Assembly (NCBI GenBank): GCA_903842795.1 | Contig: CAIMNJ010000013.1 | Span: forward strand, 69,302 to 133,301 | DNA: 64,000 bases | Direction: 5' to 3' | DNA from: an uncultured bacterium | Lineage (GTDB): Bacteria; Patescibacteriota; Microgenomatia; UBA1400; PJMF01 | Shown here: positions 12,295 through 26,710 of the stretch, in pieces | Numbering within the stretch: the stretch's first letter is position 1 | How the letters are laid out: each line of letters begins with the position of its first letter | The notes under the pieces: model-generated | Seen by the model: the letters and a program-made list of their open reading frames with translations, nothing else | Told to the model about the DNA's origin: nothing | The model's database searches: none | Made by a program: the position numbers and the translations under genes

Positions 12295-12372
12295 GCACCC
12301 ATAGCTCAGTCTGGATAGAGCGTTTGTTTGCGGAACAAAAGATCGTGCGTTCGAATCGCACTGGGTGCACCA
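12295..12372 (+). tRNA. tRNA-Arg (anticodon GCG by manual fold), CCA encoded
   Basis: Manual cloverleaf: 7-bp acceptor GCACCCA/TGGGTGC, D-arm GCTC..GAGC, anticodon stem TTTGT/ACAAA with loop TTGCGGA, T-arm GTGCG-TTCGAAT-CGCAC, A73, CCA. Confidence 0.75.
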
Positions 12373-12454
12373 AATCACAATAACAGTACCAAACACCCCA
12401 CTCGGGTGTTTTTTTGTTTTTAGTGTTAGAATTTAGAAGTTCCTACAGATCTAA

Positions 12455-12536
12455 GGAAGGGTCGCATAGCGGCTATTGCATCAGCCTCGAAAACTGACGC
12501 CTTCGGGCACCGCGGGTTCGAGTCCCGCCCCTTCCG
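12455..12536 (+). tRNA. tRNA-Ser (anticodon CGA), type II with long variable arm, no encoded CCA
   Basis: Acceptor GGAAGGG/CCCTTCC, 3-bp D-stem, anticodon loop CTCGAAA (C31.A39 mismatch), variable arm GCC-TTCG-GGC, T-arm GCGGG-TTCGAGT-CCCGC, G73 discriminator. Confidence 0.7.
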
Positions 12537-12775
12537 CAAGTAACACAAATTATCTTGATAGACCCATCCTTTTACCGTATTAGCTTGATGCAGTCGACTT
12601 AATTTTTACCGAAAAAGGTTGATTCTCGTTTTACAGCCTGTATAAAACGAAACCTTGAGTTATTAGATACTAAAACTCATATTGAAAACCTCTTCTCATC
12701 TTTAATATAGTTGCGAAATGACGAACAAAAGAAATTTAAAGATTATCCAAATTGGCTTCTTTAATAAAATAAATT

Positions 12776-14071
12776 TTAGTGAAGGCTCAAAACCTTATTC
12801 TTCAAAACAAACCTTGTTTTCAGACAGGATAATATTTGTTGGCGGTCACTTGCTGATCCAGTTTTTAGAATATGTTCTAAATATGTTTTGGCCATTTCTG
12901 TATTGTTTAGTTTCACAGCAGATAGTTCAAGCTCTTCTAAATTTCCAGATAAATATTCTTGATTGAGTACCTCTGATCTTAATCTATGAAATTTCTCAAT
13001 GTCACTTCTAATTTGTTTCGAAATCTTTGCCTCATCAATTTTAATTTTAGGTAATAGTGTTAGCAGCTGATCGATTAAATCTTGCTCAGTAATATATGGC
13101 TCATTGCAATCGTAATCTACAGTTTTAGTACAGTGATAATAAATATAGGTAGCCTCTCCGCCATATTTTAATTTCTTATGTTTTTCCTCTGGAATAACTT
13201 GTGCTCCACATCTGCCACATGTACAAATTCCTCTAAAACCATAACCATTTTTCTTCCAAGTTTTTGGAGTGGTAATAAGTTGCTTTTGCACTTTCATAAA
13301 TAAATCGTGAGAAATTAGTGGTGGGTGAGTACCTTTATATAGCACTTCACCAAATTCAAACTCACCGTAGTAAAAACTATTCTTAAGAGTGGAGAAGACT
13401 TTGCTCAATGCTAATTGTTTCCCAGACCTCGTGGTAAATCCTATTCTGTCCAACCATCGTTTAATCATTCTTCCTGAATAATGCTCTTCGCCAACTTTCT
13501 CAAACATTTGGGTAACAAATGGTGCTCTCTCCTCATCAACAATTATTTCTCTAATGCGATCATTTTTAATAATATTTAGATATCCTATTGGAGCATAACC
13601 AGGTCTAATGCCCATTTCACACTTGGCTCTAAGGCCTCGTTTAACATTAACTCCACGATTATCATTTTCTAGTTTTGCTTGTGAGCAGAGAATCATGAGC
13701 AAAAACTTTTCATTTGGGCTATTGGTAAAACTTTGAGAATAGGTTTGGATCTTTAGCAACTTGCCTTGATCCATCAGATCAACTAGTGAGCCCAAATCGC
13801 CAGCATTTCTGCTTAGTCTATCAGGAGCCCAAGTTAAAATAGCATTATATTTTTCTTCTCTAATTTCTTTAAGTATTTCAACAAATAGTGGTCTAGCTCC
13901 AGAGGCTTTGGCCGAGTGACTTTCACGCTTAATTTCGACTATTTTGAGGCCCTCACGCTCGGCCAATGTGGTCATTTCTTTAATCTGGGAGTCGATAGAC
14001 ATTGTTTGTCGTTCATCAGACTCTGATGACTTTCTAGAGTAGAGGCAGTATTTGATTTCTGAGCTTTTCAT
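12776..14071 (-). CDS. large serine recombinase (resolvase domain + recombinase/zinc-ribbon domains)
   Basis: N-terminal YSRKSSESD...SIDSQ catalytic serine block, then recombinase domain with Cys cluster (CTCGRCG...CTK). Confidence 0.85.
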   Translation of the reverse strand: MKSSEIKYCLYSRKSSESDERQTMSIDSQIKEMTTLAEREGLKIVEIKRESHSAKASGARPLFVEILKEIREEKYNAILTWAPDRLSRNAGDLGSLVDLMDQGKLLKIQTYSQSFTNSPNEKFLLMILCSQAKLENDNRGVNVKRGLRAKCEMGIRPGYAPIGYLNIIKNDRIREIIVDEERAPFVTQMFEKVGEEHYSGRMIKRWLDRIGFTTRSGKQLALSKVFSTLKNSFYYGEFEFGEVLYKGTHPPLISHDLFMKVQKQLITTPKTWKKNGYGFRGICTCGRCGAQVIPEEKHKKLKYGGEATYIYYHCTKTVDYDCNEPYITEQDLIDQLLTLLPKIKIDEAKISKQIRSDIEKFHRLRSEVLNQEYLSGNLEELELSAVKLNNTEMAKTYLEHILKTGSASDRQQILSCLKTRFVLKNKVLSLH

Positions 14072-14156
14072 AGCAGTTTTCCTTCAATTAGTGAAGGTAC
14101 CGCAAAGAAATTAGAAGTCTAGTACAAAAACAAAAAACTAGTGATATTATTCATTT

Positions 14157-15125
14157 GTGAAAGAAAATGCTGAAACAGCAAAGAAATATCTAGAATTAAT
14201 TGCAGGTGGGTCTTTTTTATTTGTGTTGATGGGTTATTTTTTTGGATACTCAATTTTTTTCTCTTTTTTGCATTCCATGCTTGGGCTGCCGGTGTTAACA
14301 AGTATGATTTTTCCACCAAGTCAAATATTGTTTCTCGGTTATTTAATTATATTCAGTTTATTAATTTCAATTTTTGTTACTTCTCAGATTTATGGTAGAT
14401 CTGACGGAGTTTCTTTCTCAGAGCTAATATTTGCAGGAGTATTTTTAGGAATGTGGAGTTCTAACATCAAATTCCACGTGTTTCATTTTGAATTTTCTTC
14501 ATTATTAACTAAATTATTTGGCACATTAATTTTAATTATTATTGTTTTTGTATATTTTTATCTGTTACGTTTCAGAAATAAACGTAAAAATAAAAAATTA
14601 AAGCTAAAAAAGCATGAAGAATTTTTTTCAACTGCTTGGCTAGTGTATCTTTTCGCTATATTATTACCAATATTTTCCTCTAGAGGAGAACATATTATTG
14701 GTGCAAAAACTGATATTGTTACTATATTTTCAACTTTTTATTTTGAAATTTATTATGTTGTTTCTCTATTGGTTATTTTATTTAATTGGTTTATTGAGGA
14801 GAAAAACAATAAAAAGAAGTCTAAATTTGTAACTGGACTCATTTTTTTGACTACAATTTTATTTTTAATATATCAATTTTCTTCAATTTTTGGCAAAGCC
14901 ATAGCTGAGAGTTATATAAAAAACCAAGAAGGAATGTTTTCATCAATTTCATTTGGACTAAATAAAGAAATAGATATAAACGGTTCTAACAAAACTTCTA
15001 AATTAAACAATCTTTTTTTGCTATCAAAAGATAATGATTCTTATTATGTTTTTCAAATGAATCCAAATAAATTAATATCTATCGAATCTAGCACAGTTGA
15101 CTTCGCAACGATGCCGGATAATTAA
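14157..15125 (+). CDS. polytopic membrane protein, hypothetical; very AT-rich gene
   Basis: Multiple hydrophobic segments; composition visibly far more AT-rich than its neighbours. Confidence 0.45.
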   Translation: MKENAETAKKYLELIAGGSFLFVLMGYFFGYSIFFSFLHSMLGLPVLTSMIFPPSQILFLGYLIIFSLLISIFVTSQIYGRSDGVSFSELIFAGVFLGMWSSNIKFHVFHFEFSSLLTKLFGTLILIIIVFVYFYLLRFRNKRKNKKLKLKKHEEFFSTAWLVYLFAILLPIFSSRGEHIIGAKTDIVTIFSTFYFEIYYVVSLLVILFNWFIEEKNNKKKSKFVTGLIFLTTILFLIYQFSSIFGKAIAESYIKNQEGMFSSISFGLNKEIDINGSNKTSKLNNLFLLSKDNDSYYVFQMNPNKLISIESSTVDFATMPDN

Positions 15126-15129
15126 GGTT

Positions 15130-16581
15130 TTATATCCACCCAATTTGTGGCTCATATTCGCTTAAATATTCTCTGTGTTTTGAACAAGCCAAAGTAAAAG
15201 CGTCAGCTAAATCATCAAACCTCTCGCTACCAAAGAAAAGAAGCTGATTAATGAGTTCTTCAGCTCCTTTTCTTGGAAATAAGATTTGACCTTTGCTAAC
15301 TTGCGTTGATGCCGACCAAAGCCTTGTGCTTTTATCTTGTCCTTTAATAGGAACACCTTCTACTGGTAGGTCATGGCTTTTTAATTGGTCTACTAAGGCT
15401 ACTTGCTGACCAGCTTGTTCAACAATAATTTTGACCGTATGAGATCTGCCAATCGTCTTGTAAATGCTAGCTATTAAATCAATCAACTCTGGACTATTCC
15501 ATTTACCGCTATAAATAGTTTCGTGGATATACATCTTTTTATCATCGTGACCAAAGTCATAAAATGATGAGCAAATGATCGCAGTCTTATCAGCTTCTTT
15601 AGTAGTAGAAAAGGCTGGATCGATGCTAATAACGTAATAAGACAAATACTTATCATCGGGAAATTGGTCGTAATACTGAATCCACTCTGGCTTAATAATT
15701 TGCTCATTACTATTAATTGCCTTCAGTAAATATTCTCTAGCAAAATCAATTTCAGTAAGACTGTTTTTAAGCCTATCGACTTCTTTTTGGTTTGGATATT
15801 TTCCTTGCCATAAGCAGCTGCCATCTTCATTAAGAAGCGGGTATTCGCGATAGTATCCAATCCTTTTGCCACTTTGAATCGATTCTCTAAGACGCATCAT
15901 CGCAGAATCTTTATGAACTAGATTGCCGATAAAAACATATGAAGTTTCTGGATTGCCAATTGGAATTAGCTCACCATTAACAAACTCCCAAAGTTTATCT
16001 CTTTGTTCTAAGGTCTTCGCTGACTGCACGTCCTCAATATCGTCAGCAATGATTAAATCTGGTCTATAAGCACCATGTCTAATTCCACGAATTGATTCAC
16101 TCACTGAGACCGCAGAAATTCTTGCCTTATGTTCTTGCAATACTAAGCTAGCAGAATTCCATTCTGAAGTTTCAGCTGTCAGAAATGGCCCAAAATCATT
16201 AATTAGTAGTTCATTAGTTTCTAATTCTTGTCTGATGTTATAAAGAGTTTGACTTGATCTACTTTGGCTTTGGCAAACAATAACCACGAATTTTTTCTGA
16301 TTGGTACAAATAGTGTTCCAAAGAGGCAAAATTAAGGAGCAGAGTGTTGACTTTGCACTACCTCTAAAAGCCACTATGCAGCTTAAACCAGGTTCTTTAT
16401 TAGTTATTAGGTCAATAATCTCACGATGAAATGCTGGCTGTTTATATTGCAGAAAATGAGGAAAGTACAAAGTCAGAAACCACTGGAAACTTTGTTTAGC
16501 CAGCATTCTACGACCAACTCTTGTTTGAATTAAATCATCGATAGCTTCAAATTTATTTTGCATACTAGTCACCTCCCTCAT
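15130..16581 (-). CDS. phage terminase large subunit (ATPase + nuclease)
   Basis: Walker-A-like AFRGSAKST, Walker B/acidic LIIADDIED, C-terminal RNaseH-like nuclease region; adjacent small subunit gene. Confidence 0.7.
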   Translation of the reverse strand: MREVTSMQNKFEAIDDLIQTRVGRRMLAKQSFQWFLTLYFPHFLQYKQPAFHREIIDLITNKEPGLSCIVAFRGSAKSTLCSLILPLWNTICTNQKKFVVIVCQSQSRSSQTLYNIRQELETNELLINDFGPFLTAETSEWNSASLVLQEHKARISAVSVSESIRGIRHGAYRPDLIIADDIEDVQSAKTLEQRDKLWEFVNGELIPIGNPETSYVFIGNLVHKDSAMMRLRESIQSGKRIGYYREYPLLNEDGSCLWQGKYPNQKEVDRLKNSLTEIDFAREYLLKAINSNEQIIKPEWIQYYDQFPDDKYLSYYVISIDPAFSTTKEADKTAIICSSFYDFGHDDKKMYIHETIYSGKWNSPELIDLIASIYKTIGRSHTVKIIVEQAGQQVALVDQLKSHDLPVEGVPIKGQDKSTRLWSASTQVSKGQILFPRKGAEELINQLLFFGSERFDDLADAFTLACSKHREYLSEYEPQIGWI

Positions 16582-16984
16582 TAGAAGACATCAGCTCCAA
16601 AGCAGTTAAAACTTTTTCTTGCTGTTCAGGAGTTAAAGATTCCTGTGGAGCTATCGGAGTGAGCTCCACTCTTGTTCGATAATCTGGATGGTTATGTTTT
16701 AGCCAATAAGCAATGGCTTGGAAACTTTTATCTTTAATGCTGCTAATTAGCTGAGACTCAGCCATGTCGTTAACCATGGCTTTGCCTTCAGATAAAGAGC
16801 CTCGAGCTTTTTCAGCGAATTCAGCATCGTCTTTGCACCAGCGATAAAAAGTTGCTCTACCAACGCCAGCCCTTTCACAGGCAATCTGAACGATTGGCAT
16901 TTTCCTAAGTTGCTCAATTAGTTCTAATTTGTCATTAGCGATGCGATCGACAATTGTTATCTTTTGTTTAGTTTGCTTTGGCAT
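16565..16984 (-). CDS. phage terminase small subunit (HTH)
   Basis: HTH ACERAGVGRATFYRWCKDD typical of TerS; overlaps the TerL start. Confidence 0.6.
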   Translation of the reverse strand: MPKQTKQKITIVDRIANDKLELIEQLRKMPIVQIACERAGVGRATFYRWCKDDAEFAEKARGSLSEGKAMVNDMAESQLISSIKDKSFQAIAYWLKHNHPDYRTRVELTPIAPQESLTPEQQEKVLTALELMSSNEGGD

Positions 16985-16985
16985 T

Positions 16986-18317
16986 TTAGGAAATCCTTTC
17001 TGCCTTAATACCAGTTAACTTTTCGTATCGTTTGCAAATCACTTCAGCATAAGTTGGACATTTTTCCATAATGTAGCAACGACGCTTCATTTTTGTGGCT
17101 GCGATTAGAGTCGAGCCACTTCCACCAAATGGTTCAAAAACTAAATCACCTCTTTTGGTGAGAACCTTAATGTATGGAATTAGAATCTCCGTAGGTTTGG
17201 TGCCAAAAACTACTCCCTGACCTGAGCTTTTCTCGTCGCTAGCGTTAAATTCAATAAAGTCAGTTGGCTGATATTTTTTACCTTTCTCGTAACCTTCCCA
17301 CTGAGGCTTTCCAGAAATGGCATAAAGAGCTGTCTGATATTCTTCTTGCAAACCATCCAGTTCTTCATCGTGGTTGTATTCAACGTCAGCTTCTTTGGAA
17401 GCACCGACCATTGCAATGTCATGCTTACTAAAGAATTTATACTTGGCACTAAATCCCTGATGACGATTAGGAATGTGCCAAACAATCATGTTTTTAACTT
17501 TCCAATATTTTTCCATCTCTACCCAGATAGTGCGCAGGTTTTTCCAGTTCTCGTAAACAATAATTGAGAAATGTTCAGCCTGCACCTTGGCAATATTAGC
17601 CATCCATAGTTCAGTAAAGTTGTCTGGAAGCACGTCAGTCATTAAATACTTGCGATCACGCTTATATCCGAAGCCTTCAGTGGCCTTACCGTGCTTAGTT
17701 TTGCCATGTAGATAATCCAAAATGTATGGTGGGTCAGTAAGAGTTAGATCCACTTTCTCATTGCCGATTAATTTCAGAACATCTGCCTCTATAGTAGAGT
17801 CGCCGATCATTAATTTGCTCTCACCTAGTTGATAGACTTCACCATTCTTCATTTTGATTTCATTAATGTTGAGTTTGGCTAATTCTTTCTTTAGATCAAA
17901 TTGCTCTGGGACAGCTAAATCTAAATTAAAAATGTTGTCTAGCTCTTCGCTACTAAAACCAACATCTTCCAATATTTCTGGAGCGAAGCCCTTTAGTAAT
18001 TCCCAATCCCATTCACCAGTTGCTCGATTAAGTCTTAGATTTAGATCTTTCTCTTTCTCCAAATCTGGGATGTCTAGGTAGACAACTGGCACTTCATTTA
18101 TGCCCAGCTCTTTGGCAGCCGCAATTCTCATGTGGCCACCAATAAGAGTGTTTAGTCTTTCAGAAGTAGAATTTGCGATAACTGGGTCAACGAAGCCATA
18201 AAGACTTAGGCTTTCCTTTAGTTTCTCCAAGGCTTCTTTATTCCACTTGCGCGGATTGTATGAGGCGAGATTTAGTTTCTCGATCTTAACTTGTACTATG
18301 TCTAGCTTATTTGGCAT
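16986..18317 (-). CDS. ParB-N nuclease-like domain fused to DNA N6-adenine/N4-cytosine methyltransferase (phage-type orphan MTase)
   Basis: N-terminal ParB box GGHMRIAAAKELGINEVPVV; MTase motif IV DPPY (TLTDPPYILDY) before motif I FEPFGGSGST (beta-class order). Confidence 0.8.
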   Translation of the reverse strand: MPNKLDIVQVKIEKLNLASYNPRKWNKEALEKLKESLSLYGFVDPVIANSTSERLNTLIGGHMRIAAAKELGINEVPVVYLDIPDLEKEKDLNLRLNRATGEWDWELLKGFAPEILEDVGFSSEELDNIFNLDLAVPEQFDLKKELAKLNINEIKMKNGEVYQLGESKLMIGDSTIEADVLKLIGNEKVDLTLTDPPYILDYLHGKTKHGKATEGFGYKRDRKYLMTDVLPDNFTELWMANIAKVQAEHFSIIVYENWKNLRTIWVEMEKYWKVKNMIVWHIPNRHQGFSAKYKFFSKHDIAMVGASKEADVEYNHDEELDGLQEEYQTALYAISGKPQWEGYEKGKKYQPTDFIEFNASDEKSSGQGVVFGTKPTEILIPYIKVLTKRGDLVFEPFGGSGSTLIAATKMKRRCYIMEKCPTYAEVICKRYEKLTGIKAERIS

Positions 18318-18484: not shown

Positions 18485-20824
18485 GTGAATATGGATAAAG
18501 AAGCAAGTGCGAGACTCATTATTAACAAACTGCTTGAACAAGCTGGTTGGGTTCTGGTTAATAGTGATCAAATAAAAGCGAACGTTGATGTTGAAAATCA
18601 CCTAGTAGATGATGAGGAAAAGGAAAACAGTGGTTTTGCTGACTATGTCCTTTACGGACAAGATAGAAAACCAGTTGCTGTTATTGAAGCCAAGAGAAGT
18701 CAAATCGATCCCTTAGACGCTAAAGAGCAGGCGCGCATTTATGCTCAACAGCTAGGTGTTAGATGGGTGCTACTTTCTAATGGTGAAAAACACTACCAGT
18801 GGAATATTGAAGAAGGTAATCCAGAAGAAATCACTCGTTTTCCATCACAGGAGTCACTTGAATCAAACGTAAGCATTAAAAGAGATGCTGATTCACTAAT
18901 TAGTGAAGTTGTTGGCGATGATTATGTAGCTCTCACTCAAAACCCAATTTATCGACAAGATCCACGCTGGCAAACTGCAGATGGTAGAAAGCAAATGATT
19001 CAAACAGATAAATTGCGTTTTTTACGTGATTATCAATTGGATGCTATCAAATCAATTCAAAAAGCAGTTTCTACTGGCAAGAAAAGTTTTCTTTTTGAAA
19101 TGGCTACTGGGACAGGTAAGACCTTAACTGCTGCTGCTATTATTAAACTATTTATCAAAACTCAGAATGCTTCAAGAGTTTTATTTTTAGTTGATCGTTT
19201 GGAATTAGAAAATCAAGCCTTTAAAAATTTCCGTGATTATCTAAAACCAGATATCACGACTGTAATTTACAAAGAACATAAAGACGATTGGCACAGAGCT
19301 GAAGTAGTGGTGACTACTGTGCAAAGCATTATGAATGATGCTAAATTCCAAGATATTTTTAATCCTAATGATTTTGATTTAATTATCTCTGACGAAGCTC
19401 ATCGCGCTATTGGTGGTGATGGTGCTAGTCGTAGAGTTTTTGAATATTTCTCTGGATACAAACTAGGTTTAACAGCAACTCCAAAAGATTATCTTAAGAA
19501 TCTAGATACCAGCAAACTGGCAGAAACAGATCCTCGCCAGCTTGAAAAACGCACCCAACTCTCAACTTACGAAATCTTTGGTTGCGCTAGTGGCGAACCA
19601 ACTTTTCGCTACACTCTGCTAGATGGAGTTAAAGATGGATATCTTATCAATCCATATGTGCTCGACTGCCGTACTAAAGTAACCACCCAATTACTTTCCG
19701 ATGAAGGCTATTCTGTGGCTAATAACTCAGATGATAGTGGTGATGAAGAGGCCATCTACCATGCTGGTGATTTTGAGAAGAAGTTTTTTAGTGAAGATAC
19801 CAATCGCAAATTTGTCGAACTATTTTTTAGGAAAGCTCTGCGTGATCCAATTTCTAAAGAAATTGGCAAAACTATTGTTTTTTGTGTTAGCCAAAATCAT
19901 GCCAGAAAAATTACTCAACTGATGAATGAATATGCTTATGAATATTTTAATGGGTTATACAACTCAGATTTTGCCATTCAAATTACTTCCAATATACGCG
20001 ATGCTCAACCATTTACAATTAAATTTTCCAATAATAATCTAAGTGGAAACTCTCGTCATTTAGAAAATTACAAAACTAGCAAAACTAGAGTTTGTATCAC
20101 TGTCGGTATGATGACAACTGGTTATGATTGTCCAGATTTGCTAAATATTTGTTTGATGAGACCAATTTTTTCACCTCAAGATTTTGTGCAAATCAAAGGT
20201 CGCGGTACTCGTAAACACATCTTTAATTATTCTGAACGTCTAAATGGTCAAGAAGTTGAACAAAATGCAAATAAAGAGCGATTTAATCTTTTTGATTTCT
20301 TTGCAAACTGTGAATTTTTTGAAAATGATTACCCATACGATGAAACGCCACAGTTGCCAAAGATTAGAGAAAAAACTGTTGATGGTAAAAATGGTTTGAA
20401 CGGTAACATAATAGTTGATTATGGTTTTTCTCCAGAAGAATTTGCTCATAATCGTAAATCAGCAGATCAAATTGCAGATATTAAGGAAAAACAAATTGGC
20501 TATGAAGGCATGAATATTGATTCTAAGCTTTACAACATGTTGCGAGACAAAGCTAATTCGGCAGCTTTAAAAAAATCTGAAATAGAAAAACAAGCTCAAG
20601 ATTGGTGGAGTGAATTTTCTAGACAACTTACAGTAACTTATGATTTGATGGATGAAATTAAATCTCTTTTTGATTTAGTGGTTTTTGACGAACAAATTTT
20701 CCAAGATCTAAGCAATCACGAATTTAGTAAATATGCTAACATGCCGGAATTGTGGAATTTACTTAATTCATTAGGAAGAACCTGGATTGATCGAGTTGTA
20801 AATTTTATTAAACAGAAAAAATAA
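18485..20824 (+). CDS. hsdR: type I restriction enzyme R subunit-like protein (HSDR_N nuclease + SF2 helicase), compact 779 aa
   Basis: N-terminal HsdR_N PD-(D/E)xK region (ADYVLYG...IEAKR), helicase motif I FEMATGTGKT, motif II ISDEAHRA, motif VI QIKGRGTR. Confidence 0.75.
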   Translation: MNMDKEASARLIINKLLEQAGWVLVNSDQIKANVDVENHLVDDEEKENSGFADYVLYGQDRKPVAVIEAKRSQIDPLDAKEQARIYAQQLGVRWVLLSNGEKHYQWNIEEGNPEEITRFPSQESLESNVSIKRDADSLISEVVGDDYVALTQNPIYRQDPRWQTADGRKQMIQTDKLRFLRDYQLDAIKSIQKAVSTGKKSFLFEMATGTGKTLTAAAIIKLFIKTQNASRVLFLVDRLELENQAFKNFRDYLKPDITTVIYKEHKDDWHRAEVVVTTVQSIMNDAKFQDIFNPNDFDLIISDEAHRAIGGDGASRRVFEYFSGYKLGLTATPKDYLKNLDTSKLAETDPRQLEKRTQLSTYEIFGCASGEPTFRYTLLDGVKDGYLINPYVLDCRTKVTTQLLSDEGYSVANNSDDSGDEEAIYHAGDFEKKFFSEDTNRKFVELFFRKALRDPISKEIGKTIVFCVSQNHARKITQLMNEYAYEYFNGLYNSDFAIQITSNIRDAQPFTIKFSNNNLSGNSRHLENYKTSKTRVCITVGMMTTGYDCPDLLNICLMRPIFSPQDFVQIKGRGTRKHIFNYSERLNGQEVEQNANKERFNLFDFFANCEFFENDYPYDETPQLPKIREKTVDGKNGLNGNIIVDYGFSPEEFAHNRKSADQIADIKEKQIGYEGMNIDSKLYNMLRDKANSAALKKSEIEKQAQDWWSEFSRQLTVTYDLMDEIKSLFDLVVFDEQIFQDLSNHEFSKYANMPELWNLLNSLGRTWIDRVVNFIKQKK

Positions 20825-20837
20825 ATAATTCAAACCT

Positions 20838-23399
20838 ATGCTAACTACTGCTACTAAGAAAAAAATTGATAATGCCAGAGATATTTTGGTTGGAAAAATT
20901 CCTATGCCTACTGCTCAAGTAGAGCAGATTACTTTAGCTTTGATCTATAAATTCATGTCTGACATGGACAAAAAGGCCAAAGATTTGGGAGACGCTGATG
21001 GCTTTTTTGCCAATGGTTATGAGAAATATGCTTGGGAAAAATTGATGGATAAAGCCCTACCCGCTCGTGATCGAGTTTTGCTTTACCGTGAAGCTCTGGA
21101 AAAAATGGCTCTTAACCCTTACATTCCTCAACTATTTTGCGATGTTTTTCGCAATGCTTCATTGCCTTTTAATGATCCTGAAACCCTCAAGCTGTTTCTA
21201 GATGTCATTGATCAATTTGAATATGACCATAGCGAAGAGCTTGGCAACGCTTTTGAATATTTATTACAGGTGATGGGTAGCCAGGGTGATGCAGGCCAAT
21301 TCCGAACACCACGTCATATCATTGATTTTATTGTTCAAGTCGTTGAGCCACAAAAAACTGATAAAATTCTTGATCCTGCTTGTGGAACTGCTGGTTTCTT
21401 AATTTCGGCTTACAAATATCTAAAAGAAAAAGGTTTATCTAGTGATGAAATGAACCAAATTTCTGAAAACTTTGTTGGCTATGATATTTCTCAGGACATG
21501 CAACGCTTATCATTGGTAAACATGTATTTACATCATTTACCCAACCCCCATATCTATGAATATGACTCGTTAACTAGCGAAGATAGGTGGAATGAAAATT
21601 TTGATGTTATTTTAGCTAATCCACCATTTATGTCACCAAAAGGCGGCATCAAACCACATAATCATTTTTCTGTGCCATCAAAACGTGCTGAAGTGCTTTT
21701 TGTCGATTATATTATGGAGCACTTAAATGGTAAAGGAAAAGCAGGAGTGATTGTGCCGGAAGGCATTATTTTTCAAAGCCAAAATACATACAAAGCTTTG
21801 CGCAAAATGATGATTGAAGAAAATTTTTTGTGGGCTGTGGTATCTTTACCGGCTGGAGTTTTTCAACCATATTCTGGTGTAAAGACAAGCATTCTTTTGT
21901 TTGACAGAGAAATTGCTAAGAAAACTGACAAAATCTTATTTGTGAAAGTAAATAGCGATGGTTTTGATCTTGGTGCTCAGAGACGAGAATCAGATAAAAA
22001 TGATTTGCCAGTTGCTCGAAACTTACTTTTGAAGTTTAAACAAGCAATTCTAAGTGGAAAAGAGCTCAGCTTAGATGATGCTCTTGAGATGAGCGGTGGC
22101 CCCAGTGACAAAGACATGGTGCATAGCTATGGCTTTGATCTGAATGCCAATAGCAATATTAAGTTAGATCAAATTGTCAGTAAAGCCTACGATGAAGTGA
22201 CCAAAGACAGCATTAAAGAATCAAATTATGATTTGAGCGTGGATAAGTATAAGGTAAGTGCTGTTGGTAATAGCGAGAAATGGGCAACGGTCACATTAGG
22301 CGAAATCTGTACTTTATTGCAAAGAGGAAAATCACCAAAATATGGTGAAAGTAACTTTCAAATAATCAAGTCAGGTCAAGCGAGAGGGTATTTCACATTT
22401 GATTTCAGCACGAAATACTTTGTGGATGAAAATTTTAAGATTGACCATAGAAAACTTGAAAAAGGAGATCTTCTAGTAAATTCCACTGGCGTGGGTACAG
22501 CTGGAAGAGTTACTTTATTTGATTTAAACGGTGATTATCTTGCAGACGGACACATAACAATTGTCAGACTTAATAAAAAAATTGCTAATTCAAAATTTGT
22601 TCTTTATGTTTTGGCGAACTATTATGGTTTCAAAACAATAGAAAAGATGGCAACTGGCAGCGGTGGACAAATCGAACTCTCGTTAGACACAATTCGATCC
22701 TTAAAAATTCCATTACCTCCAATCTCGATTCAAGAAGAAATTATTGAAGAAATCGACCAATTCAAAAAAATCATCGATGGGGCAAAACAAATTTTAAATA
22801 GTTGGAAGCCAATAATAAAAGTTGATTCAAAGTGGGAGGAAGTAAGACTAGGGGATATATGTGATGTTAGAGATGGAACACATGAAAGTCCAAAGAAAAT
22901 TTTAATTGGGTATCCTCTAATTACTTCAAAGAATATTAAATCTGGAAAGATAGATTTTTCTAATGTTAGTTATATATCTAATGAAGATTTTAATAAAATA
23001 TCTAAGCGTTCTCATGTTGATATTGGTGACATCATCATGCCAATGATAGGAACAATTGGAGGAGCATGCTTAATTAGATCTAAGGAAAAGGAATTTGCAA
23101 TTAAAAATGTTGCTCTTTTTAAAAAATCAGAAAAAATTATTCCTGAATTTTTATTAAATACATTAAACTCTGATGTTTTTAGAAAAATGTTTGAAAATAA
23201 ATCATCCGGTTCTACTCAAAAATTTGTATCACTCTCAGTTTTAAGAGATCTTAAAATTAAAACTCCATCTTTAGAAGTACAAAAAGAAATTGTTGGTAAT
23301 ATTCAAATGGAACTATTAATTATAGAGGGTGTTAAAGAATTAATTAATAATTATCAACAAAGGAGCAAGAAGAAAATTGAAGAAGTTTGGAAAAAATAG
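20838..23399 (+). CDS. type I RM methyltransferase-specificity fusion (HsdM N6-adenine MTase + two HsdS target-recognition domains)
   Basis: MTase motif I LDPACGTAGFL and motif IV LANPPF; C-terminal half has two TRD repeats (LGEICTLLQRGKSPKY... / LGDICDVRDGTHESPK...) with conserved HsdS spacer helices. Confidence 0.8.
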   Translation: MLTTATKKKIDNARDILVGKIPMPTAQVEQITLALIYKFMSDMDKKAKDLGDADGFFANGYEKYAWEKLMDKALPARDRVLLYREALEKMALNPYIPQLFCDVFRNASLPFNDPETLKLFLDVIDQFEYDHSEELGNAFEYLLQVMGSQGDAGQFRTPRHIIDFIVQVVEPQKTDKILDPACGTAGFLISAYKYLKEKGLSSDEMNQISENFVGYDISQDMQRLSLVNMYLHHLPNPHIYEYDSLTSEDRWNENFDVILANPPFMSPKGGIKPHNHFSVPSKRAEVLFVDYIMEHLNGKGKAGVIVPEGIIFQSQNTYKALRKMMIEENFLWAVVSLPAGVFQPYSGVKTSILLFDREIAKKTDKILFVKVNSDGFDLGAQRRESDKNDLPVARNLLLKFKQAILSGKELSLDDALEMSGGPSDKDMVHSYGFDLNANSNIKLDQIVSKAYDEVTKDSIKESNYDLSVDKYKVSAVGNSEKWATVTLGEICTLLQRGKSPKYGESNFQIIKSGQARGYFTFDFSTKYFVDENFKIDHRKLEKGDLLVNSTGVGTAGRVTLFDLNGDYLADGHITIVRLNKKIANSKFVLYVLANYYGFKTIEKMATGSGGQIELSLDTIRSLKIPLPPISIQEEIIEEIDQFKKIIDGAKQILNSWKPIIKVDSKWEEVRLGDICDVRDGTHESPKKILIGYPLITSKNIKSGKIDFSNVSYISNEDFNKISKRSHVDIGDIIMPMIGTIGGACLIRSKEKEFAIKNVALFKKSEKIIPEFLLNTLNSDVFRKMFENKSSGSTQKFVSLSVLRDLKIKTPSLEVQKEIVGNIQMELLIIEGVKELINNYQQRSKKKIEEVWKK

Positions 23400-23415: not shown

Positions 23416-23682
23416 ATGAAAATAATGAAATTAGATAAAGATCTGAGGGAACTGATTAAAGGAGTAACTAGTCCATATGTTTCTCAGAGAGATCCATCAT
23501 TTGGTTCTGCACAGATCACTAACATCCAGTCTATTAGAAATTTAGAAAAGACTATTAAAAAATTAGACAAACAAAATTCAGTTTTGAGTGTAAGAATGTA
23601 TTTCCTAGCAGTAATAAGTGGATTATTGGTATTTATTCAATTAGTTGAATATGCGATAAAGATATTCAACTTTTTTAAATAA
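23416..23682 (+). CDS. small hypothetical protein with C-terminal TM helix
   Basis: ORF only; hydrophobic C-terminus. Confidence 0.3.
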   Translation: MKIMKLDKDLRELIKGVTSPYVSQRDPSFGSAQITNIQSIRNLEKTIKKLDKQNSVLSVRMYFLAVISGLLVFIQLVEYAIKIFNFFK

Positions 23683-25099
23683 TTTTTTTCCAAATCTCCA
23701 CCATTGCCAAGGTATCTCTTTCACAATATTTAAGCAGTGCTTCTTTAATATCACTTCTCACATTCTCTGACATGCTTTTTCCAGCATTGATCATGTCCCA
23801 CCAAGTAATCATTGCCAGATCACCCTTACCAATCGCCAAATCTTTATAACTTAAATTCGGCACCAAAACAGGCAAAACCTTTTTAATTGACCAACTACCA
23901 CTGAAAGCCGGATCAATGTAATAACCTTTTCTTACTATTTCTGCCAAATCATAAATGCGTTCATTTACATCTAATAAAAAGTCACTAAATTCAGGATACA
24001 TTTTTGCTAGTTCAGCATTCCTGCTAGTTTCAAAAGTTTTGTTCCACACAATTACACTGCCATGATCTCCAATGTCACTTCGTAATTTCTTAACTAGTTC
24101 TATAGCTGGATCTCCAGTTCTATCTGCCAAATACTCACTGTGAGTCATTTCACCTTTTTCATTTACCATATGGAGAGAATATTGAAAAACCATTTGTTGC
24201 TGAGGATGATAACCTGGATATAAAGGTAAAGCTAAATTGCAGGTCTCATAATCTAAGAAATATAAAGGATAAGTTAATTTTCCCAGTGATTCTTTAACTG
24301 CTTCCAAATCAATAATAGCTTTGTTTTCTTTAACAGCTCTGACATGATTTTCTTGCAAAGGACTCAGTTTAAAATCCTCCGGAATATCTGAAATTTTAAT
24401 AATGCCATCTTCTATTAAAGAATTAGCTTTCTTTTGACTTAAATTTGGCAAAGTGTAGATTGAATGCTCTGGTAAATTAGGATGACATAGATTTGGACAA
24501 GGACATTTGTCTGGAGTGTAACAATGGGCAACTTTACTTGGATCATCCTGACTAATATCTGCCAATGCTTTTTCTCTTAGTTCCCTTACTTCATCTGCTA
24601 TTGATCTACATCTGTCAGTAATGTCTTCTATGGCAAACATTTGATCAAAAACATAATGACCATCGTAAATATAGTTGGCATTTAAATGTAATAGATAGAC
24701 GTGTCCAACAGGCTTTTCTTTTTCAACAATCAACATTTGAAAAGTCGCATCGTAGATATGTTCTTTTTTAACTTCAGTTGAGCTTTTGATTTCATAGATA
24801 TCTGTTTTACCTGTAGCAGCAATTTCTATTGTTTCATCAGCTATAGCTTCAAAATTGCCATCAACAAAGACTGGTTGGTGGCTGCCAGTATCGCCAACTT
24901 TGGCAGTAGATATGAAAATTTCTGTGAAATATTGACTAGCTAATTTCTCTGCTTTTTGACCTTGCAACATAATAAATTGGTCAAAATCAGAAGGAGCTGT
25001 TCTCTCAAGTAAATTGTGCTTTTTAGCCCACAAATGTCTTGGTGCTTCTTGGTAGAGGAGAAAGTCTGATTTGGTAAGTTGCATAGCTAAATTGTACAA
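23675..25099 (-). CDS. DUF2779-like protein, probable PD-(D/E)xK (RecB/Cas4-like) nuclease family
   Basis: Recalled DUF2779 signature around FLDYETCNLALPLYPGYHPQQQMVFQYSLH; Cys cluster CYTPDKCPCPNLCHP; no database check possible. Confidence 0.5.
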   Translation of the reverse strand: MYNLAMQLTKSDFLLYQEAPRHLWAKKHNLLERTAPSDFDQFIMLQGQKAEKLASQYFTEIFISTAKVGDTGSHQPVFVDGNFEAIADETIEIAATGKTDIYEIKSSTEVKKEHIYDATFQMLIVEKEKPVGHVYLLHLNANYIYDGHYVFDQMFAIEDITDRCRSIADEVRELREKALADISQDDPSKVAHCYTPDKCPCPNLCHPNLPEHSIYTLPNLSQKKANSLIEDGIIKISDIPEDFKLSPLQENHVRAVKENKAIIDLEAVKESLGKLTYPLYFLDYETCNLALPLYPGYHPQQQMVFQYSLHMVNEKGEMTHSEYLADRTGDPAIELVKKLRSDIGDHGSVIVWNKTFETSRNAELAKMYPEFSDFLLDVNERIYDLAEIVRKGYYIDPAFSGSWSIKKVLPVLVPNLSYKDLAIGKGDLAMITWWDMINAGKSMSENVRSDIKEALLKYCERDTLAMVEIWKKII

Positions 25100-25148
25100 T
25101 CAAAATAGGTACAAAGATAGCAAAAACTATCTGCTATAGTAGAGATAT

Positions 25149-26096
25149 ATGTCATTCTTTAACCAAGATCTCGACTCACTCCTCAAAGAAGTAATTCTTT
25201 TGCTTCAAACTTCAGATTACGCCAGTTCTTCACTCATTCAAAGACGCTTTTCTATTGGTTATGCTCGTGCTGCCAGAATAATAGATCAACTGTATGAATT
25301 AGGTTTTGTTGGTGCTCCCGATGGATCTAAACCAAGAGAAATATTGATTAAAGATATACCAGAAAATTTTGATTTAGAAAAGTATCTCCAAGATATGGTG
25401 CTACTTAAAAGTACTCCCACAAGTGAATGGAAAAGAGTCAAAGAAGCTATGGATGGCCATATTCTTAAGCTAGGTAAGAACCAAAAGAAAAAATTAGTCA
25501 CTCTAGATTTAGAAAAGTATGGCAACTTAATTTTAGTTGGTTCTGAGCTTACTAATATTTCTAAACTAACAAACAAAATTCTCAGTCAATTAGTTGAAGA
25601 AAAATCTCCTGAAGAACTAAAGTTTATCGTGGCCGATCCTTCATCAAATCAACTTGAAATTAAAGATGGCGACCCACATCTATTAACACCAGTGATAGAT
25701 AATCCAGGAAAATTAGTGCCAGCTCTTGCTTGGTTGTCTATGGAAGTTGATAAGAGAAGAAAAGCAGAGAGCTCAGAATTTAATTTGCCAATTCTACTAT
25801 TTATTAATAATTTTAATGAATTTAATTATTACGCTGCTGCGGAGATTCAAGATCGTATGTCTAGAATTCTCAAATTAGGTAGAAATGTAAAAGTTTACTG
25901 TATTATCTCTTTTGACTATCTAGATCCAAACATTAAAAAAGATCTCTTTGTTAGTGTTGGTGCTAAAATTGTTTTTAAGCCTACCACCGAGCACATGGCT
26001 CGTAACAACGGCATTCCAGAATCAATTGAACTCACTAGTCCAGATGAAGCTATTCTAGAGACAATGTATGAGGGGAGAGAAACTTTTTCCATCTAA
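25149..26096 (+). CDS. FtsK-like protein: N-terminal FtsK-gamma (KOPS-binding winged helix) + degenerate RecA-like motor domain
   Basis: SSSLIQRRFSIGYARAARIIDQLYELGFVG matches the FtsK gamma domain; downstream LKFIVADP...PHLLTPVIDNPGKLVPALAWLSMEVDKRRK and later blocks align to the FtsK beta domain, but Walker A is LVGSELTNISK and Walker B is FINNF. Confidence 0.7.
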   Translation: MSFFNQDLDSLLKEVILLLQTSDYASSSLIQRRFSIGYARAARIIDQLYELGFVGAPDGSKPREILIKDIPENFDLEKYLQDMVLLKSTPTSEWKRVKEAMDGHILKLGKNQKKKLVTLDLEKYGNLILVGSELTNISKLTNKILSQLVEEKSPEELKFIVADPSSNQLEIKDGDPHLLTPVIDNPGKLVPALAWLSMEVDKRRKAESSEFNLPILLFINNFNEFNYYAAAEIQDRMSRILKLGRNVKVYCIISFDYLDPNIKKDLFVSVGAKIVFKPTTEHMARNNGIPESIELTSPDEAILETMYEGRETFSI

Positions 26097-26113: not shown

Positions 26114-26710
26114 ATGTACAGCATTAATGAATATAATAATTTAGTTTCAAAATATGGCTCTTTTGCTAGTTGGGCAATTTGGAATTATGAGGATTCAAAA
26201 GACACCTCTATTATTGATAAAAATTTAGATCAACTGCATTCGAGATACGTTCTTCTTGGATTAAACATGTCTCGTTTATTAAATAGACCAGCTTGGTTTA
26301 ATTTTCATGACAACACTCATTCACGTAAAGTAAGATATGCCTGTAATGATAATGAATTGCGTGGCTCTTATATGACAGATCTTTTTAAAGACATGATCGA
26401 TCCAAGCTCTTCAAATTTTGAAAAGAATGTTACAAAAAAGGATATCGATGCGAATATAAAATTATTTAATCAAGAAATGGTAGACGTTAAAATAAATGAA
26501 GACACAAAATTTATTATTTTTGGTCAATCAACTTTTAGATTTTTTAATCAATATTTTAAACAAGATTATGGAAATGAAGTGATTTCTATTCCTCACTATT
26601 CTAGTAGAGGTACAGACAAAGAATGGGTAGAGGGTTTTTGGAAGAAGCTGAACATTAATTTAAATTTTGAATCTATTGTTAATAAATATATCAAAATAGA
26701 TCATTTATAA
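26114..26710 (+). CDS. hypothetical protein (198 aa)
   Basis: ORF with RBS context; no recognised motif. Confidence 0.4.
   Translation: MYSINEYNNLVSKYGSFASWAIWNYEDSKDTSIIDKNLDQLHSRYVLLGLNMSRLLNRPAWFNFHDNTHSRKVRYACNDNELRGSYMTDLFKDMIDPSSSNFEKNVTKKDIDANIKLFNQEMVDVKINEDTKFIIFGQSTFRFFNQYFKQDYGNEVISIPHYSSRGTDKEWVEGFWKKLNINLNFESIVNKYIKIDHL

Follow-up and report, generated by a model that had tools for sequence, protein, structure and literature searches.

The gene analysed here lies on the minus strand of a 64,000-nucleotide (nt) stretch of DNA (hereafter the window) from an uncultured bacterium (Patescibacteriota; Microgenomatia; UBA1400; PJMF01), corresponding to positions 69,302-133,301 of the forward strand of contig CAIMNJ010000013.1 in assembly GCA_903842795.1. 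It is an intact and ordinary new member of the large, biochemically uncharacterised DUF2779 family, and its product consists of three parts, a Cas4-like PD-(D/E)xK nuclease, a helix-hairpin-helix-like (HhH-like) linker and a DEDDy exonuclease, with intact catalytic residues and fold similarity to known nucleases. In this Pacebacteria-like genome the gene marks the conserved border of a variable island that consists of type I restriction-modification (RM) genes and a phage remnant. From the sequence, structural models and analogy with known enzymes we favour, with moderate confidence, the view that it would encode a stand-alone, helicase-less processor of DNA ends, not a recognised defence system, acting independently of the divergent FtsK-like gene beside it. 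The parts of the gene are as follows.

23675-25084, minus strand: DUF2779-family gene, 469 aa (ORF, Pfam PF11074, homologues, AlphaFold2 model)
24470-25084, minus strand: N-terminal Cas4-like PD-(D/E)xK nuclease domain, roughly the first 205 residues (conservation, Foldseek)
24836-24838, 24791-24793 and 24785-24787, minus strand: catalytic D83, E98 and K100 of the N-terminal domain, which also has a conserved Q116
24485-24523, minus strand: four-Cys cluster C188-x5-C194-x-C196-x3-C200, on the C-terminal border of the Cas4-like domain
24275-24469, minus strand: linker, residues about 206-270, with the HhH-like motif LSQKKANSLIEDGIIKISDIP (sequence, helices in the AlphaFold2 model)
23678-24274, minus strand: C-terminal DEDDy 3'-5' exonuclease domain, probable RNase H-like fold, Pfam DUF2779 region (conservation, Pfam, Foldseek)
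24245-24253, 23948-23965 and 23714-23728, minus strand: Exo I (D278-x-E280), Exo II (N374..D379) and Exo III (Y453-x3-D457) of the C-terminal domain

Domain architecture and catalytic residues

According to the ORF (open reading frame) list and the sequence, the mechanical ORF spans 23675-25099 on the minus strand, starts with TTG and encodes 474 aa; it contains both the Cys-rich cluster HCYTPDKCPCPNLCH and the block FLDYETCNLALPLYPGYHPQQQMVFQYSLH that had been singled out in the initial annotation. The true start of the gene is most likely the ATG at 25084, because homologues begin with MxLTKSDF and the upstream TTG falls within a conserved intergenic palindrome. Membership in DUF2779, which the initial annotation had proposed from the sequence, was borne out by Pfam, since PF11074 matched residues 280-404 of the 474-aa ORF, i.e. 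its C-terminal half, with E=7.9e-40 and 136.5 bits (cutoff 23.3) over 126 of 126 profile positions. The prediction of a nuclease likewise holds, given this membership and the conserved nuclease residues described below. The AlphaFold2 model of the protein has a pLDDT of 94.8 and a pTM of 0.89.

Conservation was counted in an alignment of 127 diverse family sequences, which are representatives of clusters formed at 50% identity, and close homologues were aligned separately in a set of 30 sequences. The PD-(D/E)xK triad is nearly invariant (D83 in 125/127, E98 in 123/127 and K100 in 125/127), Q116 is kept in 122 of the 127 sequences, and each residue of the DEDDy set (D278, E280, D379, Y453 and D457) is conserved in all 127, with Exo II of the window protein reading N374..Y378-D379. 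Judged by these residues, both nuclease active sites of the window protein are intact.

Foldseek searches of the Protein Data Bank (PDB) with the N-terminal half of the model retrieved LHK-Exo (3syy), the Cas4 structures 4ic1 and 4r5q, MGME1 and ACE1, a Cas4-family protein associated with Argonaute, with probabilities of 0.97-1.0; among these, 4ic1 matched with E=3e-4, probability 1.0 and a TM-score (target) of 0.53, 4r5q with E=4e-4 and 3syy with E=7e-5. Many phage Cas4 or PD-(D/E)xK models in BFVD also resemble this half. Matches to the C-terminal half were weaker and included ExoI, RICE1, ERI2 and 3'hExo (for the first three, probability 0.16-0.97 and E 0.04-0.07), and Pfam RNase_H_2 scored 18.2-21.0 bits on it, just below the 22-bit cutoff. 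Neither the single protein nor the family profile retrieved a relevant PDB chain by sequence. In Pfam the N-terminal half alone matched neither Cas_Cas4 nor PDDEXK_1 even at E<=10, nor any other nuclease family. The Cas4/RecB-like fold of the initial annotation is present, together with the Cys cluster, in the N-terminal half, where the probability is 1.0 for 4ic1, 4r5q and 3syy and D83, E98 and K100 are near-invariant, but it was assigned to the wrong block: FLDYETCNLALPLYPGYHPQQQMVFQYSLH (FLDYET...) is not part of it and corresponds to Exo I (D278-x-E280) of the probably RNase H-like DEDDy half, to which the Pfam DUF2779 domain also belongs.

Canonical Cas4 proteins carry one N-terminal and three C-terminal Cys residues. 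The window protein has Ala at position 14, and thus no N-terminal Cys, and four Cys after the core (C188, C194, C196 and C200), a cluster that is invariant or near-invariant in close homologues. Across the 127 representatives Cys occurs at position 14 in 81 sequences and at position 196 in 44, and the two come close to mutual exclusion (Fisher p=5e-11), since 70 sequences have only C14, 33 only C196, 11 both and 13 neither; the commonest overall patterns are one N-terminal plus three C-terminal Cys (1+3) in 39 and none plus four (0+4) in 29. Because C14 and C196 covary in this way, we infer a ligand swap, the expected pattern for a four-ligand metal site under selection, and the counts indicate that one ligand has probably been relocated. 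The site would be a Cas4-like Fe-S site or one for another metal. As for the linker, its HhH-like segment is a putative DNA-binding element, the HhH label having been read off the motif by eye.

Family distribution and proposed function

More than 4269 DUF2779 proteins were found at E<=1e-5 among the candidates scored, and HMMER retrieved 6788 clusters (50% identity) with a threshold of E<=1e-3 and 2114 when this was tightened to E<=1e-30. The 120 best matches, roughly 453-515 aa long, align over 97-100% of the query with 46-93% identity, and most of 150 representatives align from residues 1-3 to residues 465-469, which shows that the family is collinear over its full length. Its nearest relatives belong to Patescibacteria, Anaerolineae (Chloroflexi), certain Bacteroidota and low-GC metagenome-assembled genomes (MAGs) labelled Gammaproteobacteria. 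Homologues were detected in 31 of 72,556 plasmids, in none of 50,697 phage records and, by two search patterns, in 4 contigs of 2.9 million in IMG/VR, and no PHROGs family matched the DUF2779 protein. Three giant-virus proteins of the YprB/RNase_H_2 type (PDDEXK_1+RNase_H_2 models from CroV, Faunusvirus and Megaviridae) match the model across its whole length with TMq 0.60-0.68.

The low-GC MAGs deserve a comment. Thirteen DUF2779 loci (numbered here, as all loci compared, with the prefix L: L006, L008, L024, L025, L029, L039, L049, L056, L061, L071, L077, L080 and L081) are on MAGs labelled Pseudomonadales or Gammaproteobacteria whose GC content is near 36%. In several of them the genes are arranged as in Patescibacteria loci (L024 and L025 match L020, and L071 and L080 match L068, for example), and the taxonomic labels of these MAGs look doubtful.

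The two-nuclease architecture has already been published for the family. PF11074 was placed in exonuclease clade F.17 and reported to co-occur with a PD-(D/E)xK (DUF83) domain (Majorek et al. 2014, Nucleic Acids Research), and MMSYN1_0389 of JCVI-syn3.0 was described from HHpred as a quasi-essential, biochemically uncharacterised fusion of a Cas4-like and a DEDD nuclease (mSphere 2026). A transposon mutant of M. bovis in Mbov_0804 was growth-deficient when co-cultured with host cells.

Gene neighbourhoods were compared in 80 other species-level DUF2779 loci, in addition to the contexts of the two closest homologues. All-against-all clustering of the neighbours placed no family in more than 12 of 81 loci, and the top cluster consisted of ABC-type ATPases at assorted distances. 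Together with the rarity of the FtsK-like neighbour and a deletion of DUF2779 in L086, both described in the next section, this identifies DUF2779 as a stand-alone gene. Its surroundings also differ among lineages: in Chloroflexi the recurrent neighbours are housekeeping genes (HAD hydrolase, thioesterase and GlpX) and recurrent RM gene clusters occur in 1 of 44 loci, in contrast to 9 of 19 loci labelled Patescibacteria and 9 of 13 low-GC loci labelled Gammaproteobacteria (18/32 together).

Cas4 is a 5'->3' single-stranded DNA exonuclease that is Mn/Mg-dependent and carries an Fe-S cluster, and DEDDy enzymes are 3'->5' exonucleases. By analogy, the Cas4-like domain would be expected to act with 5'->3' polarity and the DEDDy domain to degrade 3'->5', so the DUF2779 protein could bind DNA ends and trim or degrade both strands without a helicase or motor of its own. 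Such an enzyme would amount to a small end processor resembling RecBCD or AddAB, serving repair or recombination, and the same activity could clear or recycle broken or restricted DNA, as RecBCD does both. We favour this end-processor view because it fits at once the quasi-essentiality in Mollicutes, the housekeeping contexts in Chloroflexi and the island edges in Patescibacteria. The Chloroflexi neighbours, the quasi-essential MMSYN1_0389, the growth defect of the Mbov_0804 mutant and the lack of matches in PADLOC, PHROGs and phage records further indicate a role that is not purely one of defence.

Several observations weigh against this interpretation. The QhxxY motif is only half present, with Q116 followed at +4 by Val and not by the Tyr found in the PDDEXK_1 sister family (QLALY), and, as stated above, Pfam recognises no Cas4 or PDDEXK_1 domain in the N-terminal half. 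What is proposed here for the polarity of the enzyme, for its substrate, DNA or RNA, and for the kind of metal cluster is deduced. Recurrent RM families lie near DUF2779 in the 18 of 32 low-GC, Patescibacteria-type loci just mentioned, and on plasmids DUF2779 overlaps a NACHT/STAND NTPase gene in L202 (Aliarcobacter) and follows a double AAA+ ATPase gene in L204 (Rhodoferax), in operon-like surroundings of SbcC-like, AAA_11/12 helicase, dGTPase, WYL and PLD genes that look like defence-island biology. The two ATP-binding partners were considered as one family, and this was rejected, as they are unrelated to each other. Finally, the strongly conserved spacer that DUF2779 has in common with the FtsK-like gene hints at co-regulation.

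The FtsK-like neighbour and the shared spacer

The genes and the spacer next to DUF2779, together with the more distant parts of the island, are listed below.

12776-18317, minus strand: phage-derived module with a large serine integrase, orf322 (itself on the plus strand), TerL, a TerS-like gene and a ParB-methyltransferase (Pfam, PHROGs)
18485-23399, plus strand: type I RM genes, HsdR (18485-20824) and fused HsdM-S (20838-23399) (Pfam, PADLOC)
23416-23682, plus strand: small convergent ORF between the RM genes and DUF2779, 88 aa, single C-terminal hydrophobic helix
25085-25148, no strand: divergent intergenic region, 64 bp, with the palindrome TTGTAC-N11-GTACAA and an extended -10-like element
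25149-26096, plus strand: FtsK-like neighbour, divergent (Pfam FtsK_gamma and FtsK_SpoIIIE)

The arrangement around DUF2779 given in the initial annotation was correct on every count: the gene is head-to-head with the FtsK-like gene and tail-to-tail with the small ORF, whose predicted transmembrane segment corresponds to the C-terminal hydrophobic helix and with which its 3' end overlaps by 8 nt, and the type I RM genes adjoin just past that ORF. The FtsK-like protein matches FtsK_gamma (2.7e-22) and FtsK_SpoIIIE (2.7e-11) in Pfam and consists of an N-terminal gamma winged-helix domain followed by the beta (RecA-like) motor fold, the alpha domain being absent. Its AlphaFold2 model (pLDDT 85) was aligned by Foldseek to the FtsK motor structures 6t8b and 2ius with E of about 1e-14 and a root-mean-square deviation of ~2 A over 245 columns. 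In all 40 aligned members of its family, GSQFT replaces the Walker A motif GxxGxGKS/T of the beta domain and DG replaces the Walker B DE. Because the Walker A Lys and the Walker B Glu are absent, the protein is predicted to be ATPase-dead and would be unable to translocate DNA by ATP hydrolysis.

A family HMM (hidden Markov model) cleanly splits these FtsK-like proteins (>=398 bits) from canonical FtsK (<=217 bits) and defines a small, Patescibacteria-specific family of ~70 known members, including that of the window and those of loci L082, L086-L094 and L170-L174. A metagenome scan for relatives returned mostly canonical FtsK, since the search patterns match the gamma domain, and only L090-L095 proved to be true members; the canonical loci were reused as a control. 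No true member was found in IMG/VR. A separate FtsK_alpha ORF lies directly upstream of the FtsK-like gene in L088, L094 and L174.

The initial annotation had proposed that DUF2779 and the FtsK-like gene may form a two-gene module, and co-localisation across genomes does not bear this out when DUF2779 is taken as the starting point. Only two contexts have the FtsK-like gene as a divergent direct neighbour, those of the sister strain (L001-3, 93% identical) and of the Pacebacteria MAG L082, and L049 has a diverged FtsK-like copy 5 kb from DUF2779; leaving the sister strain aside, this makes one adjacent case in the 80 loci of other species and one more at 5 kb. Beyond the FtsK-like gene, L082 and the window still have their core gene order in common (DUF2177 is 83% and a HAD hydrolase 62% identical), yet the DUF2779 protein of L082 is only 41% identical to that of the window and falls in a different clade of the neighbour-joining tree. 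In L086 the FtsK-like gene is intact (54% identical), and DUF2779 is cut to its first 21 codons (90% identical, L086 2894-2956), the remainder having been replaced by MazG-like and Schlafen-type helicase genes while the spacer beside the stub is intact. Since the pairing is rare and L086 keeps the FtsK-like gene without DUF2779, the two genes are mutually dispensable, and their pairing is a lineage-specific arrangement and not a general two-gene system. The MazG-like and Schlafen-type helicase gene pair of L086 was found also in L173.

The spacer between the two genes contains the perfect palindrome TTGTAC-N11-GTACAA at 25092-25114 and, preceding the ATG of the FtsK-like gene, the extended -10-like element TGnTATAGT. 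Its sequence hardly differs between the window, L001, L082 and L086, although their flanking coding DNA is only 73-77% identical, and the palindrome, of which the window has a single copy, keeps this position in the other three loci. More distant FtsK-like genes lack the palindrome and share a TGnTAnnnT element ~10 nt upstream of the ATG. This pattern points to a conserved promoter or a candidate operator and not to a regulon. The presence of UmuDC genes beside the pair in L001 and L082 had prompted the idea of an SOS/LexA regulon box, which was rejected, as the palindrome occurs once in 64 kb against 2.6 expected by chance (<=2 mismatches) and elsewhere only at the spacer. Scans for consensus promoters and terminators were uninformative, and a search of 23.0-27.4 kb against Rfam yielded nothing credible.

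Viewed from the FtsK-like side, the association is more frequent. Among 17 loci of the FtsK-like family, 12 have a Cas4-like nuclease belonging to one of three families (6 loci with a PDDEXK_1 protein of ~245 aa, 3 with DUF2779 and 3 with a PDDEXK_1+RNase_H_2 protein of ~500 aa), and the DUF2779 stub of L086 is a thirteenth; the nuclease lies within ~5 kb of the FtsK-like gene, and within ~3.5 kb upstream except in L049. In unbiased clustering these three families are the commonest neighbour clusters of the FtsK-like genes. None of 74 canonical-FtsK control loci matched the same nuclease HMMs, which are family-specific and make this a weak control.

A tentative explanation, which we regard as unlikely, is that the ATPase-dead FtsK-like protein, through its DNA-binding gamma domain and an inert ring-type beta domain whose fold is retained, would recruit, position or regulate the dual nuclease on DNA as a two-gene module, by a logic comparable to that of HerA-NurA or HerA-effector pairs, the palindrome serving as operator or loading site. 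The near-invariant 60-bp spacer and the divergent adjacency, kept in the window, L001, L082 and L086 despite the 41% identity of DUF2779 between window and L082, speak for it, as do the nuclease counts and the 0/74 controls. At a similarly low probability, the FtsK-like family as a whole may be coupled to Cas4-like nucleases swappable among DUF2779, PDDEXK_1+RNase_H_2 and the short PDDEXK_1 protein, in an undescribed module for DNA-end recognition and processing or for defence, with the same spacer as operator or loading site. However, besides the rarity seen from the DUF2779 side and the loss in L086, L171 has no such nuclease within 6 kb of its FtsK-like gene, orientation and spacing vary (divergent, co-directional or with 1-3 genes between), and FtsK-like genes have an extended -10-like element of their own. 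In addition, all FtsK-like loci come from one lineage, so that the counts are not independent, and RM or other island genes are nearly always nearby, so that a common integration hot spot would account for much of the association. A functional link between the FtsK-like family and Cas4-like nucleases is thus possible, though with a low likelihood.

Island setting and relation to known systems

To the left of the pair the window contains, in order, BipA, RarA/MgsA, tRNA-Arg and tRNA-Ser (12295-12537), the large serine integrase, orf322, TerL, the TerS-like gene, the ParB-methyltransferase and the type I RM genes. PHROGs identified TerL (2e-77) and the integrase (5e-56) in the phage-derived module. 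Capsid genes are absent from the region 12295-18317, which resembles the cryptic remnant of a prophage or else a satellite-like element. The genes that separate DUF2779 from the phage block vary: they are type I RM genes in the window and, elsewhere, SNF2, ResIII, HerA-like, type IIG or AAA_11/12+REase genes. The type I RM genes, which are 74% identical in DNA to those of L001, are variable cargo beside DUF2779. Since both the genes on the RM and phage side and those in the orf198 slot to the right of the FtsK-like gene differ within the lineage, the pair is flanked by two variable slots.

The position beside RM genes had led to the suggestion that DUF2779 might be an unknown defence gene, and no direct test supports this: no PADLOC-DB v2 model matches DUF2779, the FtsK-like protein, the small ORF or orf198, the RM genes being the only hits, and the negative PHROGs and phage-record searches, the Chloroflexi neighbours and the Mollicutes members, of which one is quasi-essential and another is required for growth alongside host cells, speak in the same sense. 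That DUF2779 would be a dedicated anti-phage or anti-plasmid effector or an RM accessory, destroying foreign DNA within a defence island once this DNA has been restricted or has been sensed by an NTPase or helicase encoded next to it, is in our view unlikely. In its favour are the adjoining type I RM genes, the recurrent RM families in the low-GC loci, the SNF2, ResIII, HerA and AAA_11/12+REase genes downstream of DUF2779 in Patescibacteria, the Schlafen, AAA_15 and RloB genes near it in L004, and the plasmid arrangements with NACHT-STAND or double AAA+ genes beside dGTPase, WYL, PLD and helicase genes. The RM proximity counts are, however, raw and not normalised to the RM density of Patescibacteria genomes, DUF2779 has no conserved partner, RM genes are nearly absent from the Chloroflexi loci, and the Mollicutes homologues are quasi-essential in phage-free culture.

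It is improbable that DUF2779 belongs to a phage-derived integrative element (serine integrase, TerL, TerS and ParB-methyltransferase), whether as mere cargo or as a gene acting in element recombination or replication or in overcoming host nucleases: the ParB-methyltransferase/TerS/TerL (+ integrase) block does lie <=10 kb from DUF2779 in the window, in L050, L068, L071 and L084 and in the IMG/VR loci L177 and L178, DUF2779 sits between TerS and integrase in L084, and giant viruses have whole-length structural homologues, but no homologue was found in the 50,697 phage records or in PHROGs, IMG/VR matches are scarce, the orientation relative to the block differs among loci, no exact repeat of >=13 nt that could mark att sites was found between the tRNA region and 22.5-27.6 kb, and most family members (Chloroflexi, Mollicutes) lack the block. 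The sister-strain contig L001 extends only as far as the ParB-methyltransferase gene.

Some further features of the island were noted. The fused HsdM-HsdS protein (853 aa) has a methylase conserved with L001 and a diverged specificity part, with no DNA match past 22189, as is typical of target-recognition swapping. The small ORF 23416-23682 has a counterpart with 36% identity at the equivalent place in L001 and no family match in Pfam, PADLOC, PHROGs or the other library scans. To the right, orf198 (26114-26710, plus strand) is strain-specific, being replaced by UmuD/UmuC, Zn-ribbon and MerR-like genes in L001 and absent in L086; it matched no family in any library searched, and its one relative, 31% identical, is near DUF2779 in L010. 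Its equation with the 198-aa ORF downstream of the FtsK-like gene of L089 was rejected because the two are not homologous. The non-coding segment 26682-26821, downstream of both the FtsK-like gene and orf198, reaches 86-90% identity with L086 and L001, which exceeds that of the neighbouring coding DNA, and contains a GGAGCA...TGCTCC hairpin with no Rfam match. A CxxC zinc-ribbon-rich protein of 360-540 aa, with no Pfam family, is encoded divergently beside DUF2779 in the Patescibacteria-type loci L038, L050, L068, L071, L080 and L176, and also occurs in L001 (1169-2248); as an immediate neighbour among DUF2779 loci it outnumbers the FtsK-like gene.

The DUF2779 proteins of Mollicutes (MMSYN1_0389, Mbov_0804 and the NCBIfam UU173 family) have the same Cas4-like N-terminal and DEDD(y) C-terminal halves, with the D..ExK and D-E-D-Y-D residues. 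In comparison, the window protein is much shorter, its match to UU173 is partial (57.5 bits against a cutoff of 225), it has four Cys where MMSYN1_0389 has two, and its gene is in an island of RM genes and phage remnants and not in a minimal core genome. Cas4 (SSO0001, 4IC1; Pcal_0546, 4R5Q) and solo-Cas4 proteins are like the window protein in the PD-(D/E)xK core fold, the D/ExK triad and the four-Cys site at the domain edge, and solo-Cas4, like the window gene, has the stand-alone occurrence typical of small-genome bacteria. In contrast to Cas4, the window gene has no cas genes nearby (none among the ORFs scanned at 9-31 kb) and the window has no CRISPR array-like tandem repeats, and the protein has no Pfam Cas4 or PDDEXK_1 match, shows a 0+4 Cys pattern (C-x5-C-x-C-x3-C) instead of 1+3 (C...C-x2-C-x5-C) and is fused to a second nuclease.

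Proteins with PDDEXK_1 and RNase_H_2 (PF13482; COG2251/YprB-like) share the domain order of the DUF2779 protein. An hhalign comparison of DUF2779 with the ~500-aa PDDEXK_1+RNase_H_2 proteins aligned 413 columns with Exo I/II/III, ExK and the Cys cluster in register and with D83, E98 and K100 opposite a D..DxK set, a weak match (E=0.008, probability 5%), and these proteins hold the equivalent position beside FtsK-like genes in L087, L089 and L174; unlike the window protein, they form a separate Pfam family with canonical 1+3 Cys and the QxxxY motif.

RecBCD and AddAB serve DNA repair and also break down foreign DNA that has been restricted. With their RecB-type PD-(D/E)xK nuclease acting at DNA ends (with Fe-S in AddB) they would be functional analogues and not whole-protein relatives of the DUF2779 protein, which differs in having neither a helicase motor nor Chi recognition, and in which 3'-5' activity would come from the DEDD domain. 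HerA-NurA and other HerA-effector pairs likewise place the gene for a ring protein of the FtsK/HerA superfamily beside a nuclease gene, and HerA structures are among the fold matches of the FtsK-like model; however, the FtsK-like protein has neither the Walker A Lys nor the Walker B Glu, NurA and the nuclease of the window are not related and the pairing is not obligatory. New in this analysis are the probable swap of the Cys ligand, the conservation of the palindromic spacer and the observation that members of an ATPase-dead FtsK-like family are repeatedly paired with Cas4-like nucleases.

DUF2779 is among the larger uncharacterised nuclease families, with thousands of 50%-identity clusters and a quasi-essential member in JCVI-syn3.0, and it is common in small-genome bacteria without much classical repair machinery. 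The repeated presence of a putatively dead FtsK-like protein beside Cas4-like nucleases offers a concrete hypothesis for a new protein pair, which is not yet established. For the family itself, the analysis sharpens the experimental targets: both active sites appear intact, the ligands of the putative metal cluster are rearranged and yet conserved, and the gene is found at the edges of RM and mobile islands in Patescibacteria versus among housekeeping genes in Chloroflexi.

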